Origin: a virus
Strand: one strand, 5' to 3'
DNA length: 64,000 bases
Virus record (IMG/VR): IMGVR_UViG_3300024350_000006
Shown one piece after another: positions 37,406 through 63,939 of the stretch; positions within the stretch are counted from its first letter, which is position 1, and every line of letters starts with the position of its first letter. The notes beneath the pieces were generated by a model. The model made no database searches, was not told the DNA's origin, and worked only from the letters and a program-made list of their open reading frames with translations. A program made the translations under genes and the position numbers.

Positions 37406-38932
37406 ATGAATCTTATGGAACTTTTTAACTTGCAGGAACTAGCTGTGGATGCAAGATATGCTACCCGGGCAGAACTTGGTATTCTTGCTGCTAACCTAGG
37501 CTCAGTGATGCCGGGGATTCGTTTTGAAGTAGAAAAGAAAGCAGAGAGTCCTGTGATCTATATAAGGATTAAAGGTGCTCAGCGCGAGGATATAACCAAC
37601 TACTTCGCCAGTCTGGGACTGGACGAGCTACCACCTGATCCTGATCAACTTAGAATTAGCGGTCAATATCGTGCCAACATCCTAAGCTACAGCACAACTA
37701 GTAACGTTATTGATCAAATTAAACCAGGCAAGGCACATCAACTACCCAGCGACGATCAAGATATAAAGAACATAATCTACACCCTAGTAGTAGCCGGAGT
37801 TGGTGATCAAGGAAGTATTAGTGTAGGTAAAAAAGAATTAACACCAGTTAGTCTGGGACTAGCTGTTAGAACTTATAACAAGGACGAATTAGTAGGCGCC
37901 ACAAAACAAGCCCTAGCAGATAAAATTAAAACACGACCTGAATTAATTGAAATTTGTTCACAACTATTAGACATAGCCGCGGCTGGAGGGCAAGGAACTA
38001 TATCCCCTGAGTTAAATAAAAAACTAGGTAGTAAAGCACGTAATCAACTCAGTGTTGATTTCGGAGAGATACTTGCACCCATAATGTTTTCCCAGGGAGG
38101 AGAACTTATAGAGTTTCCTGCAGAAGGAAACTTCCCTTTAATTGATGTAATAGTGGGGAAAAATAATTATAGCGTAAAAAGTCTTACTGGGTCTGGGACA
38201 AGCTTTGCTAGCATTGCTGATCTAATGGATAGCTATGAAGACAAACTTAAAAAATCCGGAAGTAAAGACAGTAAAAAAGTAGAAAAACTATTTCAACTTT
38301 TTAAAGGTTATCACCCCAGTGCTGGTGGCAAAAACGTTGACAAGATTATCCGCGGTGCAGCCTTTGTAAAAACAGCAGAGTATGTCAAACTAACGGAAAT
38401 TTTAGGTGGAAGTTTTAACGACTATGATGGCCTACAAGCTCTAGTTAATGAATTAATTAAAAAAATTTATAGTAAGGACAAAGTTCAAAATCCTACCGAA
38501 TACTATTCAGATTTTTTAAATACTGTTTATCCAGCAATGACAGCTGGTGGTTGGGAAAAGCCCGCAGGATTACCAGCTGATGGTGCTTACTATATGGGCA
38601 AAGCCAAGGAGCTTAAAGCAGAAAAAACTGCGGGATACCCTAGCTTTAGAACCAACACAGTCAAAGCAGCAACAGATATTTTAACTTATGTATTAGGCGT
38701 TGGTACGCTTAATTTAGTCACACGTGGCAGTGATGCAGAACAATATGCTGAAATGATGACAAACATTGTAAATCAAAGCCCAGCTTATCTAGGTCGATTG
38801 GACATCACTGGTAATGGTGGTTTGGTTGCCGTCAAAACAGCATTTACTGATCTAAAATTTAAATTCCAGTATCACGCTCCAAGTCATATACCTGGTAATA
38901 ACTTACCTGGGTTTATGATTGTGATGGATTAA
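37406..38932 (+). CDS. putative PD-(D/E)XK nuclease-like late protein
   Basis: TATAAATA promoter; FGEIL...NFPLIDV......SVKS. Confidence 0.5.
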   Translation: MNLMELFNLQELAVDARYATRAELGILAANLGSVMPGIRFEVEKKAESPVIYIRIKGAQREDITNYFASLGLDELPPDPDQLRISGQYRANILSYSTTSNVIDQIKPGKAHQLPSDDQDIKNIIYTLVVAGVGDQGSISVGKKELTPVSLGLAVRTYNKDELVGATKQALADKIKTRPELIEICSQLLDIAAAGGQGTISPELNKKLGSKARNQLSVDFGEILAPIMFSQGGELIEFPAEGNFPLIDVIVGKNNYSVKSLTGSGTSFASIADLMDSYEDKLKKSGSKDSKKVEKLFQLFKGYHPSAGGKNVDKIIRGAAFVKTAEYVKLTEILGGSFNDYDGLQALVNELIKKIYSKDKVQNPTEYYSDFLNTVYPAMTAGGWEKPAGLPADGAYYMGKAKELKAEKTAGYPSFRTNTVKAATDILTYVLGVGTLNLVTRGSDAEQYAEMMTNIVNQSPAYLGRLDITGNGGLVAVKTAFTDLKFKFQYHAPSHIPGNNLPGFMIVMD

Positions 38933-39611
38933 TCTGTTTTTTTAACGCTGCGCGGTAACTACTACGTACTACTTTCTGCCAATCACTAGCAAATGTGCCG
39001 TGAACTATAATATGAAATCTATCCTGATGACTGTTATTATAAACGGCGTGTGTATAATTTGTGTTAAACAAAAACGCTGATCCAGAATCTTTAAAGGGCA
39101 CTTCACCGCTAGTGGTAACCAATCTACAATTCTCGGGATTGTTAAGACTTATATTAACTGCACTTCCTAAAAAACTCTCAGGGTTATCAAAATGTGGAGA
39201 GATATATCCATCGGGCTCCAGTAACATATACCTTATTCTATCGTAATTTTGATAGGGAAATTTATTTTTAAAATAGTCCACTGTCACAGGACACAACGGT
39301 GCTATATCTGTCCAAGAATAAGGAACTTGATCTGAAGTATAGCCATATTCTTCTGGAACTCCGGTCTTTTCTGCACTGATTCCGTGTACACAAAGACTTC
39401 GCCAACCCTCGCCGTCCTGTGGCCTGTGTGTTACAAATCTATCTTTTAATGCACGAGCTTCCTGTAACATTCCTGCATAGGGTGCATCTAGTAATAATTC
39501 CAAATAGGGAGCTTTACTCTGGAATAGAGGATCAGAGATATCTGTTTCATAGACAAACGTATTACTTTTGTTTGCTTCTATAAATTTTATAGTTTGATCA
39601 AGTGCTGACAT
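38913..39611 (-). CDS. Asp/Asn beta-hydroxylase-like 2OG-Fe(II) oxygenase
   Basis: RYMLLEPDGYISPHFD, HAVYN....RFHIIVH. Confidence 0.8.
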   Translation of the reverse strand: MSALDQTIKFIEANKSNTFVYETDISDPLFQSKAPYLELLLDAPYAGMLQEARALKDRFVTHRPQDGEGWRSLCVHGISAEKTGVPEEYGYTSDQVPYSWTDIAPLCPVTVDYFKNKFPYQNYDRIRYMLLEPDGYISPHFDNPESFLGSAVNISLNNPENCRLVTTSGEVPFKDSGSAFLFNTNYTHAVYNNSHQDRFHIIVHGTFASDWQKVVRSSYRAALKKQINPSQS

Positions 39612-39687
39612 TTATCCAAATTGGTAAGAAAGAGCTAGACATTAAAATATTTATCGTGCATAATGTGGTTGTTGCTTGTGCAGCACT

Positions 39688-39765
39688 GGGCCTTTAGCTC
39701 ACGGTGGTTAGAGCATCCGACTCATAATCGGGTGGTAGTTGGTTCGACTCCAACAAGGCCCACCA
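39688..39765 (+). tRNA. tRNA-Ile2(CAU) (lysidine type likely)
   Basis: Cloverleaf, loop CT-CAT-AA, Ile2-like body, CCA. Confidence 0.85.
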
Positions 39766-39811
39766 AAGAATTCTTGACACTAAATAAACTACGCTGTAAT
39801 ATAATGAATAT

Positions 39812-39896
39812 GCGACTGTGGTGAAATCGGTATACACAGCAGACTTAAAATCTGCCGCCGCAAGGCGTGCCGGTTCGATTCCGGCCAGTCGCACCA
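39812..39896 (+). tRNA. tRNA-Leu(UAA)
   Basis: Long variable arm, CCA; TTGACA-17-TAATAT upstream. Confidence 0.95.
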
Positions 39897-39932
39897 AAAT
39901 ATAGTTCTGCTAACTTTTTATAAATTTACAAA

Positions 39933-40508
39933 ATGACAATCGAAAATTGGTTTAGTGTACCTGTTCTGTATTACGATTTGTCAGAGGAAGAATTTGAAAA
40001 AGTTCAGGATTCAATACAACTAGCTATGCCCAAGATTCTCGAATTAGATCTTGGAAATCCCTGGGGTGATTCAGTAGAAACTTCATTTAAGTACAAAACT
40101 GATTGTAACTTAATAGAAGATTTGGGGCTAGAAGTTTTGAAAACAGTTATAATGGATCAGGCAACTTTATTTTGCCAGTCCTATGATTTAAATTACACAT
40201 TAAGGCTTAAAGAAAGCTGGGTGAATATTTCTAAAAAACAAGGGTTCCAATACCCTCATAATCACCTTCCTTTTTTGTTTTCTGGTGTATATTTTTATCA
40301 GACTAATGGAGAAGATGGCTCATTGCAGTTTAAGAGCCCCAATCCCTGGTTAAATGCAATGACATATCCTTTTGGCTACGATAAAGTAACCTATCGTCCT
40401 ATTGAGGGTAGATTGATAATGTTTCCAGCATATTTGGAGCATCTAGTTAATCTAAATAATACTGCATCTACTAGGATATCTTTATCCTTTAATATAGAAT
40501 GTAATTAA
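39933..40508 (+). CDS. 2OG-Fe(II) oxygenase (phage type)
   Basis: SWVN...PHNH..FSGVYF...FPAYLEH.V...RISLSFN. Confidence 0.85.
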   Translation: MTIENWFSVPVLYYDLSEEEFEKVQDSIQLAMPKILELDLGNPWGDSVETSFKYKTDCNLIEDLGLEVLKTVIMDQATLFCQSYDLNYTLRLKESWVNISKKQGFQYPHNHLPFLFSGVYFYQTNGEDGSLQFKSPNPWLNAMTYPFGYDKVTYRPIEGRLIMFPAYLEHLVNLNNTASTRISLSFNIECN

Positions 40509-40513
40509 ATTAT

Positions 40514-40588
40514 CTGGCGTTCGTTCAACGGATAGGACAACAGTCTTCTAAACTGTGAATGGGGGTTCGATTCCCTCACGCCGGACCA
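40514..40588 (+). tRNA. tRNA-Arg(UCU)
   Basis: Cloverleaf, CCA. Confidence 0.92.
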
Positions 40589-40594
40589 TACACA

Positions 40595-41140
40595 ATGTTA
40601 CTAACTAATTTGCTGGATTTACCCACTGCAATTTATATAGAAAATAAACTAGGGGATGATTATTTTCCTTGGTATTGGAACGAAAATACACTCACAGATC
40701 AAGAAGTGAGCAGTTTAAAAAATTTTCAGTTTACACATAATTTTTATATCAACGGAGCAATTAATTCAACCTATGCACGTATGCTAGATCCCATACTTGC
40801 AAGTATTGAAAGCAAAGCAGATATAAAAATAAAAAATATTTTCAGGGCAAAAGCTAATTTGTTAACTAATATGCAAATGTCCGAGCAGGAGCTAGCTAAC
40901 GAAATACATACTGATCACGATTCTACTGACTATAGAAGTTTTGTTTATTATGTTTCCACTAGCGATGGCGACACTATAATATATGATGAGAATGAAACAA
41001 TTTTAGAACAGGCAAGTCCTGTGTTTAATAGTGGTATATTGTTTCCCTCTAGGTTACAGCACAGAGGAACACCACCCCTGCTGCACAAAAGACGCATAGT
41101 AATAAATTTTATATTGGAAATACAAAATGAACGAAACTGA
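40595..41140 (+). CDS. 2OG-Fe(II) oxygenase
   Basis: HTD, YYV..SDGDT, H.G......RIVINF. Confidence 0.8.
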   Translation: MLLTNLLDLPTAIYIENKLGDDYFPWYWNENTLTDQEVSSLKNFQFTHNFYINGAINSTYARMLDPILASIESKADIKIKNIFRAKANLLTNMQMSEQELANEIHTDHDSTDYRSFVYYVSTSDGDTIIYDENETILEQASPVFNSGILFPSRLQHRGTPPLLHKRRIVINFILEIQNERN

Positions 41141-41399
41141 TAGAGAAATACTTGTAATCACCCAGGAAGAATGCGCTGAAGTCATACAGGAAATCAGCAA
41201 GTGTTTTCGTTTTGGTATAGATAAATTACACAAAAGTGGGCTTCCGCACAGACAGGTTTTAACCCAGGAAGTGGGAGATCTAATGTGTATGCTACAGTTA
41301 ATGATGGAGCATAATATTGTAGACTCCCAGGAAGTAGAAGTTGCTAGACTAGCAAAATTGCAAAAATTGCAAGTTTTTTCAAATATTTTTAAAAAGTAG
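41127..41399 (+). CDS. MazG-like nucleotide pyrophosphohydrolase
   Basis: QEECAEVIQEISK...EVGDL. Confidence 0.8.
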   Translation: MNETDREILVITQEECAEVIQEISKCFRFGIDKLHKSGLPHRQVLTQEVGDLMCMLQLMMEHNIVDSQEVEVARLAKLQKLQVFSNIFKK

Positions 41400-41428
41400 T
41401 TGACAAAAAGACTAAATAAATTTACAAT
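41400..41428 (+). promoter_or_regulatory. sigma70 promoter of the leader / attenuator
   Basis: TTGACA-17 nt-TACAAT; CTAAATA within the spacer. Confidence 0.85.
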
Positions 41429-41437
41429 ACGACAATT

Positions 41438-41560
41438 ATGAAAACTAACCTACAACACTTGTTTATATCAAAACCCTGCTCAGTGCAGCCAGCTGGCTAT
41501 TGGGTTGCGATTACACGCGAGATTAGTAATCTAGACCAGGGGCTTTGTAGAGTCTTATAA
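41438..41560 (+). CDS. putative attenuator leader peptide containing all 20 amino acids
   Basis: MKTNLQHLFISKPCSVQPAGYWVAITREISNLDQGLCRVL*; 35 distinct codons in 40. Confidence 0.75.
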   Translation: MKTNLQHLFISKPCSVQPAGYWVAITREISNLDQGLCRVL

Positions 41561-41618
41561 TTGTAATTAAATAGAATTCTACAAAACCCCAGGACTCGAA
41601 ACCCTGGGGTTTTTGTTT
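41536..41618 (+). terminator. attenuator: antiterminator (41539-41553 with 41576-41590) competing with terminator (41583-41593 with 41603-41613 plus U-tract)
   Basis: Mutually exclusive helices share AAAACCCC. Confidence 0.8.
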
Positions 41619-41632
41619 ATATAAAGGGAGAA

Positions 41633-41797
41633 ATGACAACTGAACAGGAAATTCTGTCGTTTCAAAAAAAGTTAGAAGAACGTAATTTTGTTTTTAACGA
41701 TCGATTGCTTGAACAATTGTTTAAAGAAAAAATGGAACGTTTGCGCAGGCAAACAGAACTTAATCAAGAATTACGTCGGCTAATAAAGAGGCGATAA
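41633..41797 (+). CDS. small charged coiled-coil protein (54 aa, not in the ORF track)
   Basis: AAGGGAG RBS; MTTEQEILSFQKKLEERNFVFNDRLLEQLFKEKMERLRRQTELNQELRRLIKRR. Confidence 0.65.
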   Translation: MTTEQEILSFQKKLEERNFVFNDRLLEQLFKEKMERLRRQTELNQELRRLIKRR

Positions 41798-41799
41798 AG

Positions 41800-42063
41800 C
41801 AGTAAAGTGCAATGTGGAACGAGGCCACTGCTCACTATAAAAAGCTAAACGGGCGGACAGTATATATGAAATCACGGCGAGAACGTTGAGAGTAAGACTA
41901 CTGGTTGGGGTGTCGACCCCAACATAATGCGAGGTAACTCGCATTATTCTAAAGCACACTGGGCTAAGTACACGCCTATGCTCTGGACGCAGCCGGGCCG
42001 CCGTAAGGGGGCCTTTAAGGTGGACGGTTCGAATCCGTTAGTGTGTTTTAGAATAGTTCACCA
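41800..42063 (+). ncRNA. unrecognised structured RNA(s), including conserved-stem element A with a tRNA T-arm
   Basis: Hairpins GTTGGGG/CCCCAAC and ATAATGCGAG-GTAA-CTCGCATTAT; 17-bp stem 41945-41961 with 42039-42055. Confidence 0.55.
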
Positions 42064-42109
42064 AATATACTTTACAATTAGTGAGTTTGGCTATATACTA
42101 GAAAAATAC

Positions 42110-42204
42110 GGAGCGTTGGCCGAGTTGGTCGAAGGCACTTTCCTGCTAAGAAAGCATCTGGACAAAAATCTGGATCGTTGGTTCGAATCCAACACGCTCC
42201 GCCA
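42110..42204 (+). tRNA. tRNA-Ser(GCU)
   Basis: Long variable arm, G73, CCA. Confidence 0.92.
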
Positions 42205-42969: not shown

Positions 42970-42998
42970 TTGACTTAAATTAGAACTTAAAGTAATAT
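42970..42998 (+). promoter_or_regulatory. sigma70-type promoter
   Basis: TTGACT-17-TAATAT. Confidence 0.6.
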
Positions 42999-45488: not shown

Positions 45489-45523
45489 AACCTAGGTACT
45501 ATTGTAGTATGCTAGGTTTTTTT
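45489..45523 (+). terminator. intrinsic terminator inside the tRNA island
   Basis: AACCTAG-GTACTA...TAGTATG-CTAGGTT plus T-run; TTGACA follows at 45529. Confidence 0.7.
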
Positions 45524-45648
45524 ATGCGTTGACAACAAGGAGATCCTGTTATGGATAGTGACAAGAAGGGTCTATTAAGATATGGTTGGACATATCGCGA
45601 TAGGCTTAAACGAGCAGCAATAATGTTCCAACTATATGGTATTACAAT

Positions 45649-52720: not shown

Positions 52721-52749
52721 TTGACAGTAATTGCACTAGATGATATAAT
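52721..52749 (+). promoter_or_regulatory. consensus sigma70 promoter
   Basis: TTGACA-17-TATAAT. Confidence 0.9.
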
Positions 52750-53462: not shown

Positions 53463-54347
53463 TTAGGGAGTTTAATCTCTTGTTAGGCGGTTCGCCGTCT
53501 AACTAAGGATAAGTGGCGTGAGTCACCCAAAGCAGAATCCTCCTACAGGACTGCGCCAGAGATGGTCCAGTTAAACAAGCCTGCTCACTACCGCGAGGTA
53601 GCGATCACTGATAAGACCGGTGGTTGTAACAATGAAGCTGGTGTAGTGGAAAGAACTTGTATCGACTAGCCCGCAAGGGAACTAGGGTGCAAGGAAAGTA
53701 ACAGGTGGTGCTGACTTCACTACAAAACCAACCAGTTAGTTGGTATGAGAAAGGGTAGTGCATTTGTCCAAGGTTTCGCAGCCAAGGGCTTGTGTGCAGT
53801 ATGAATGGTACTTGGGGCTGCTGTGAGGCGTCACAAGAATCGTGAAATACTACTGAGTAGCCGGCAGGCGAAAGGTACGTGGTGTGTTGTATCGTGTATT
53901 CCAAAAGAGTATGCGGCAACTGGAGCAGCACATCATAGTAGGTTGATATAGCTCATTGGTAGAGCAACAGTCCTTTTAAACTGTAGGCAGTTGGTTCAAA
54001 TCCAACTATCATTAAACAAAAACGCAAAGACTGCTCCGGTTGTATGTGAAAAGCATCTAACACTTAGGGCGTAAGCTAACTAAGTTCAGTCTAACCCGCA
54101 AGGTGAAACTGATTTGTACTAGAAGATTCGTAGCTCGCAAGGCTTAATGGACCGCAAGTTCAACGGGTAATAAGGTACAGAGTAGCATACAATGACAAGA
54201 CTACTGCCTGTCTTTAAACGGCGATGCTGCAAGCAGACTGGATCACATAGCGATATGGATCTTGTGGATGTCGTGGAGAAGATTGGCTCGCAAGGCTGAC
54301 TATAATACCCGAGGTGCTTGTAGTTAAGATGTAATCTCAGTCTTAAC
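53463..54347 (+). ncRNA. GOLLD-like giant structured RNA
   Basis: About 885 nt with no credible ORF; many GNRA (GCAA, GCGA, GAAA) hairpins; AGGTGGTGCTG, GAGTAG and terminal GTAATCTCAG segments recalled from GOLLD; tRNA-array context. Confidence 0.7.
53942..54014 (+). tRNA. tRNA-like (Lys-like) domain embedded in the giant RNA
   Basis: D arm GCTC/GAGC, ACAGT/ACTGT stem with 8-nt loop CCTTTTAA, T arm; no CCA. Confidence 0.7.
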
Positions 54348-63864: not shown

Positions 63865-63939
63865 ACTTCGGTGGCAGAATGGTTGATGCTCCCATCTCTA
63901 AAATGGGCTAAATGGGTTCGAATCCCATCCGAAGTACCA
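63865..63939 (+). tRNA. amber suppressor tRNA(CUA)
   Basis: ACTTCGG/CCGAAGT acceptor, CCCAT-CT-CTA-AA-ATGGG anticodon arm, T arm, ACCA. Confidence 0.9.

Follow-up and report, generated by a model that had tools for sequence, protein, structure and literature searches.

A candidate transcription attenuator ahead of phage tRNA genes whose leader open reading frame samples all 20 amino acids

A common view of phage tRNA arrays is that they aid codon usage or counter host systems that cleave tRNAs. The locus described here raises the question of whether a phage could couple the supply of its tRNAs to the state of decoding itself. The window, by which we mean the whole 64,000-nucleotide stretch of IMG/VR record IMGVR_UViG_3300024350_000006 that was analysed, belongs to an uncultured, myovirus-like giant phage (tail sheath, tail tube and large terminase are present) to which none of 50,697 cultured phage records is closely related. 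It carries 29 tRNA genes, all on the plus strand between 39688 and 63939, and 26 of these lie downstream of a compact leader unit at 41400-41618. An earlier note had read this unit as a general attenuator responding to the tRNA pool, and the comparative sequence evidence presented below supports that reading: we consider it likely that the unit is a ribosome-mediated transcription attenuator with a leader ORF that samples all 20 amino acids.

Direct checking against the sequence confirmed all coordinates of the unit. It opens with a sigma-70-type promoter on the plus strand (TTGACA-17-TACAAT, 41400-41428) that matches 11 of 12 consensus positions, with TTGACA at 41400-41405 and TACAAT at 41423-41428 on either side of a 17-nt spacer, and that is the top promoter match across 39-48 kb in a consensus scan. 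Combined with its spacer motif CTAAATAAA (41406-41422), this promoter occurs a single time in the window and is conserved in homologous units. The spacer motif has a resemblance to the core of a T4-type late promoter (TATAAATA), and the leader unit may therefore be read by two polymerase forms. Downstream lies a near-leaderless ORF of 40 codons on the same strand (41438-41560), an open frame with more than 100 homologous ORFs, whose ATG at 41438 stands 9 nt past the -10 hexamer without a Shine-Dalgarno sequence before it and whose TAA stop codon occupies 41558-41560. Promoter and ORF are thus where the earlier note had placed them, and a recount of its composition agrees: all 20 amino acids are present, the last newcomer being Asp33, and 35 distinct codons are used.

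The RNA encoded by this region is predicted to be highly structured. In the minimum free energy fold of 41480-41602, a hairpin within the ORF, H0 (plus strand, 41503-41537; GGUU..GAUUAC / GUAAUC..GACC), has a predicted counterpart in the main family, where it underlies the conserved YW..SNDRTPE region, and may act as a pause or spacer element. The final coding stretch, 41539-41553, forms the 5' arm of the antiterminator hairpin H1 (plus strand, 41539-41590; called from folding and covariation), which holds the stop codon in its apical part and has its 3' arm at 41576-41590; the pairing between the arms, earlier counted as 14 of 15, consists of 13 Watson-Crick pairs, one G-U pair and one C/A mismatch. 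Over 8 nt the H1 3' arm overlaps the 5' arm of an intrinsic terminator predicted by folding (plus strand, 41583-41618), which has the 11-bp stem that had been proposed (41583-41593 with 41603-41613), a 9-nt A-rich loop and a U-tract running to 41618. A consensus terminator scan missed this element only because its loop exceeds the 8-nt limit of that scan.

Taken singly, the window locus is weak evidence and it is the comparative evidence that is decisive. With the amino-acid frequencies of the window, the probability that 40 codons contain all 20 amino acids, a simulation suggested in the earlier note, is 0.0057; the corresponding null probability is 0.0016-0.03 across lengths of 35-50 aa, and about 1% of the other 35-50 aa ORFs in family loci are complete. 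Given the peptide and the codon usage of the window, at least 35 distinct codons would be drawn with P = 0.033. Across the family the excess of distinct codons is modest (mean z = +1.6) and is confounded by RNA-structure constraints, so we do not count codon-choice diversity as support. Folded alone, H1 reaches -17.5 kcal/mol (z = -4.5, with 0 of 200 shuffles as good) and the terminator -17.0 kcal/mol (z = -3.1), and the fold of the entire leader RNA has z = -2.1.

Homologous leader units were recovered from more than 100 viral and metagenome contigs, which form a family whose members are related by descent, so that counts across it are not independent events. One contig, L001, was reached via the MazG-like gene that neighbours the unit and carries a homologous unit whose ORF keeps its frame despite a 9-nt indel. 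A pattern scan for the terminator hairpin returned approximately 80 genuine viral contigs, an independent pattern for the antiterminator arms that left the loop and 3' arm free added approximately 50 further peptide variants with other loop sequences, and a metagenome scan supplied extra members of the window's own short subfamily, which comprises 13 leaderless members of 39-43 codons. The ATG lies 6-10 nt past the -10 hexamer in 35 units, the window included, and across family units the position of the start AUG is fixed, either where transcription starts or following a leader rich in A and G. The ORF stops at TAA in 93 of 103 units and at TAG in the other 10. The earlier note had asked whether related units stand ahead of tRNA arrays, whether completeness outlasts peptide divergence and whether the antiterminator covaries, and the family bears out each of these points. 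Transfer RNA genes are present in the fetched DNA of 96 of 103 units, every one on the strand of the leader; a locus has 13 of them at the median and as many as 41, covering all 20 isotypes, and usually none or few are upstream of the unit. We also looked at co-variation between leader and array and discarded it as a line of support: leaders without one amino acid do not head arrays without that tRNA, and those without Leu still head arrays with tRNA-Leu, which counts against the attenuator reading.

Searches of reference collections placed the unit in no described group. Rfam, at gathering and E-value thresholds, returned no family for the leader or for the ncRNA that follows it; the His_leader model scored the leader at 18-19 bits against a cut-off of 49, other leader models were also far below threshold, and the leader had no T-box match. 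The leader peptide had no match in Pfam or PHROGs. Among cultured phages, megablast, blastn of the window region and blastn of the main-family unit found tRNA matches only or nothing, and tblastn with the 54-aa protein encoded downstream found no relative. Across representative prokaryote genomes from 185,579 species the terminator pattern had 0 matches; a looser H1 pattern gave 120 rows in representative genomes, all of them chance matches in GC-rich genomes, and was set aside.

If the leader ORF samples the full amino-acid set, completeness should be visible across the family, and we found all 20 amino acids in 90 of 106 unique homologous ORFs (52 of 62 in the initial set), which span 30-150 aa as called, with true family members mostly at 35-63. 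Among the 16 exceptions a few are false or shortened calls and most others are without exactly one residue; in the window subfamily 9 of 13 ORFs are complete and the remaining 4 lack one residue. When residues were shuffled within alignment columns, 8.9 +/- 2.5 ORFs were complete (maximum 20) compared to the 48 of 56 observed, and the five other reading frames yielded 0-2 complete of 56 with 1.3-4.3 stops each, leaving frame 0 as the only one free of stop codons, across whole-codon indels. The rare residues are distributed in a distinctive way. Cys averages 1.12 per ORF with a variance of 0.18 and is absent from 3.6% of ORFs, compared to 32% expected from a Poisson distribution, and His averages 1.11 with a variance of 0.10 and is never absent. 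These residues nonetheless change position: Cys is found in 20 alignment columns, His in 13 and Tyr in 17, and all three shift among columns and are almost never lost, the Cys codon within the window subfamily alone being found at position 8, 14, 32, 33, 37 or 38. Rare residues that are under-dispersed yet mobile indicate that selection acts on the presence of a residue and not on its position. Runs of codons for a single residue are absent from the leader ORFs, in which rare residues occur approximately once each and alanine averages 2.6 of about 47 residues, and the enrichment for the amino acid of a controlled pathway that typifies classical attenuators is not seen.

The second component of an attenuator is an antiterminator that is exclusive with the terminator, and this too is conserved. 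The nascent RNA of every member is predicted to form the long hairpin H1, the terminator stem is present throughout the family, and in all members the H1 3' arm ends in the CCCC with which the terminator stem CCCCAGG/CCUGGGG starts. In loci L080 and L088, CCCC has become CCC together with both of its partners. Between subfamilies the outer helix covaries (GGGGUCC/GGACCCC, GGGGCUU/AA.CCCC, GGGGUUU/AAACCCC, GGGGUCU/AGACCCC and GGGUUCC/GGAACCC), and within the window subfamily one H1 pair passes from G-C to G-U and then to A-U. With sequences aligned by plain MAFFT, the H1 helix exceeds every one of 500 shuffles both in covariation score and in double changes, and slid-partner controls all score below it. 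The window RNA lacking the terminator 3' arm, as it would be during transcription, folds into full H1.

The energetics of the two states gave a mixed answer to the earlier suggestion that both be folded. On the one hand, the window hairpins are isoenergetic when folded separately, and across the family the difference averages -2.2 kcal/mol in favour of the terminator, with a range of -9 to +3; such near-equal predicted energies are what a switch needs. On the other hand, the naked window RNA favours the terminator by 4.3 kcal/mol, and equilibrium folds in which a 28-nt ribosome footprint was masked do not cleanly separate the states, stalls at codons 5 and 25 giving the antiterminator and those at codons 10, 15, 20, 30 and 35 the terminator. 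We therefore do not use the equilibrium stall folds as support, and their ambiguity means that the attenuator model depends on co-transcriptional folding kinetics. The terminator loop, in the window (41594-41618) and in family loci, is A-rich (AYTAAAAAC or AYTAAACAC), and folds of the antiterminator state often have it paired to the U-tract (AAAAACC-CUGG-GGUUUUU); such pairing could be an additional lock against termination.

Next to be considered is the position of the ORF relative to these hairpins, which bears on the polarity of the proposed switch. The H1 5' arm begins 11-34 nt ahead of the stop codon, mostly 22 and in the window 19, and the 3' arm ends 24-38 nt past it, an arrangement in which a terminating ribosome would mask the 5' strand of the antiterminator. 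In the window subfamily the stop codon sits inside H1, 24-29 nt ahead of the terminator core, and at this distance a terminating ribosome is expected to clear H1 and leave the terminator free. A ribosome on the last codons or the stop would thus remove H1 without covering the terminator, which fits a geometry in which stalling means ON. The amino-acid set, in turn, is usually completed upstream of the H1 5' arm, at a median distance of 11 nt. This distance is at least 8 nt in 76% of complete units, compared to 18% after within-peptide shuffling of residues, and the last newcomer amino acid falls inside or past the arm in 9% of complete units. Nearly all amino acids would accordingly sit where a stalled ribosome is predicted to leave the arm free. 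The earlier note had cautioned that late stalls may still cover the strand, and this caution holds for Asp33 of the window: at a distance of only 5 nt ahead of the arm, a stall on this codon probably escapes sensing.

We turn to what read-through would deliver. The first gene past the switch (plus strand, 41633-41797) encodes a 54-aa protein behind a strong Shine-Dalgarno sequence, AAGGGAG, and the distance from the U-tract to its start, 14 nt in the window and approximately 15 nt in the family, leaves no room for a promoter; the terminator therefore precedes the first gene with no promoter between them, an arrangement that is alike in approximately 40 loci. Proteins of this family (50-60 aa) are conserved in 40 loci, are always encoded by the first gene behind the switch and share the motif LT.EQ..KLI..K.ERA with invariant Lys and Arg. 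The 54-aa protein is modelled as a two-helix hairpin (pLDDT 88), with no Pfam match, no PHROG function and no PDB match by Foldseek. It is followed by a conserved structured ncRNA (plus strand, 41798-41950) with 22 nhmmer matches in family loci, for which RNAalifold gives 31 pairs, 19 of them with compensatory changes, and in which the motifs AACG.G and GGGCG(G/T)AC are invariant; in loci without the 54-aa gene, this ncRNA lies directly 3' of the terminator. Between 41945 and 42055, a long closing stem (ATTCTAAAGCACACT / AGTGTGTTTTAGAAT) surrounds tRNA-like cargo with the T-loop GGTTCGAATCC, which neither ARAGORN nor Rfam calls as a tRNA. The first downstream tRNA, called by both, is Ser-GCT (plus strand, 42110-42204).

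How far the switch could act is limited by further signals within the island. The promoter at 42970 and the terminator at 45489 that the earlier note had named as limits are both present, the latter as a hairpin resembling a terminator (45489-45515), with TTGACA further on at 45530; a promoter-like site also occurs at 42071, and consensus promoters at 52721 and 61157. Given the sites at 42071 and 42970 and the hairpin at 45489, the window island is not one operon and is looser than in most relatives, and direct gating would reach at most from 41619 to approximately 45515, a stretch with at most nine tRNAs besides the small gene and the ncRNA. Elsewhere on the island, a GOLLD RNA at 53879-54343 (214 bits) embeds a tRNA-like gene at 53942-54014 whose anticodon ARAGORN could not read, and the tRNA at 63865-63939 has a CTA anticodon (Pyl according to ARAGORN) and is a candidate amber suppressor. 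On the other side of the switch, three oxygenase genes of the 2OG-Fe(II)/Asp-Arg-hydroxylase type and a short MazG-like gene lie at 38913-41399 among the three tRNAs that precede it.

In the mechanism that we propose, the strong promoter would produce an RNA starting at or beside the AUG, and during elongation the seven codons that end the coding stretch would fold together with the sequence past the stop into H1, which would sequester the CCCC of the terminator. Smooth translation to the stop codon would bring a ribosome onto the H1 5' arm, occupying or unwinding it, whereupon CCCC could pair with CCUGGGG and transcription would end at the U-tract. An early stall, caused by the lack of any charged tRNA or by a general failure of translation, would leave H1 intact and let polymerase read on, and the same would follow if no ribosome were loaded. 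In some hosts leaderless mRNAs are poor templates for translation, and read-through would be the default state there. Read-through would extend into the small gene that has no promoter of its own, then the structured ncRNA and the island's first tRNAs, and would thereby close a feedback loop in which limited decoding increases the output of phage tRNAs. We infer from sequence that the ORF is translated, that stalling means ON and that a physiological trigger exists; anticodon nucleases, starvation and host shut-off are conjectural candidates for it.

Other explanations have to account for the same features. The unit might be a stand-alone gene whose small peptide product is functional, for instance as a regulatory or anti-defence micro-protein; its terminator would then be constitutive, and the hairpin would do no more than stabilise the mRNA. 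Such a gene would be expected to show what is seen here: a promoter and a terminator of its own, and an ORF that stays open through more than 100 conserved variants sharing peptide motifs such as AKQAGFMPSYW and SNDRTPE. However, pN/pS is approximately 0.7 and variability at the third codon position does not exceed that at the other two, unlike in a folded protein, and from these values the peptide sequence appears weakly constrained; translation appears to matter and the product probably does not. Moreover, much of the peptide conservation, the motifs included, falls beneath predicted RNA helices, a full set of mobile residues makes no obvious sense for the function of a peptide, and a constitutive terminator would silence the next gene, which is promoterless and needs read-through. 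We regard this explanation as decidedly improbable. The unit might instead be a non-coding small RNA of approximately 180 nt that ends at its intrinsic terminator and acts in trans or as a structural RNA, with the open frame incidental; in favour are conservation largely at the nucleotide level and the z-scores of H1 and of the whole RNA, which mark it as highly structured. It is very hard to reconcile this with a frame that is the only one of six without stops across whole-codon indels, with the fixed position of the AUG, or with a level of completeness in that frame that goes beyond what RNA constraints alone would give, and we think it has little chance of being correct. Completeness and weak constraint on the peptide, taken together, fit neither a folded micro-protein nor a purely non-coding RNA.

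A further explanation keeps the coupling to translation and changes what the switch does: the position of the ribosome might control the stability, processing or translation of the message downstream, or completed translation might be what permits read-through, as in a licence that needs all 20 aminoacyl-tRNAs. The ambiguous stall simulations leave room for the opposite state to follow a stall, the pairing of the terminator loop with the U-tract hints at more than two conformers, and the unit is close to the downstream Shine-Dalgarno sequence. Against this, both the placement of the stop codon inside H1 ahead of the terminator core and the front-loading of the amino-acid set before H1 speak for stalling as the ON signal, and the experimentally studied whiB7 switch, to which we return below, works in that direction. 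We consider a different output or polarity unlikely.

Returning to the attenuator with an ORF sampling all 20 amino acids, its broadest form would be a universal decoding sensor, in which a near-minimal ORF, with a single codon or a few for each amino acid, switches on the supply of phage tRNAs together with a small protein and an ncRNA when any tRNA or amino acid is limiting, for example through host anticodon nucleases or host shut-off. We hold this claim tentatively, judging its chances to be respectable but somewhat short of even. If it is true, phage tRNA arrays would be an inducible, self-correcting counter-measure and not constitutive cargo, among known attenuators the unit would be the first that acts on tRNA genes, and its ORF would be a natural complete test message for translation. 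The unit also offers synthetic biology a compact general sensor of translation stress, and it flags two co-regulated products, the 54-aa two-helix protein and the structured ncRNA, as likely players in phage translation control.

In the literature we found no account of a 20-amino-acid leader ahead of tRNA genes, and several known systems share parts of its design. The leaders of amino-acid operons (trpL, hisL, leuL, pheL and the multivalent thrL and ilvL) contain runs of one to three cognate codons and regulate genes of the corresponding biosynthetic pathway. The phage leader resembles them in the logic of ribosome position, in its mutually exclusive helices, in a stop codon beside or inside the antiterminator 5' strand and in a U-tract terminator before the first gene; by contrast, it is without runs, contains all 20 amino acids and fronts phage tRNA genes. 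T-boxes bind one specific uncharged tRNA directly, have no ORF and control synthetase or amino-acid genes. As with a T-box, the state of tRNA or its aminoacylation would choose between terminator and antiterminator in the phage unit, but sensing would run through the ribosome and cover all amino acids at once.

The closest known system, by analogy, is the whiB7/wblC uORF attenuator of Actinobacteria. In that system efficient translation of the uORF leads to termination and stalling leads to read-through, and experiments showed that the amino-acid content of the uORF decides which starvation is sensed, the removal of Trp or His codons weakening the matching response (PMC10274678). The M. smegmatis uORF contains every amino acid except Cys, that of M. 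tuberculosis is without several amino acids, and whiB7 uORFs are 25-40% alanine (PMC10274678). Compared by description (PMC10274678), both systems combine a promoter, an upstream ORF of diverse composition (in the phage, predicted to be translated) and a coupled choice between terminator and antiterminator; we noticed no sequence relationship between them. They differ in that completeness is not conserved in whiB7 uORFs, whereas the phage ORF is kept complete across a large family while being short (35-63 codons), near-minimal for a complete set and without enrichment for a single residue such as the alanine of whiB7. They differ also in target, which for whiB7/wblC is a chromosomal transcription factor gene and for the phage unit a 54-aa gene, an ncRNA and tRNAs. 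Collectively, these comparisons support the view that the phage leader represents a form of ribosome-mediated attenuation that is new both in the logic by which it senses and in what it controls.
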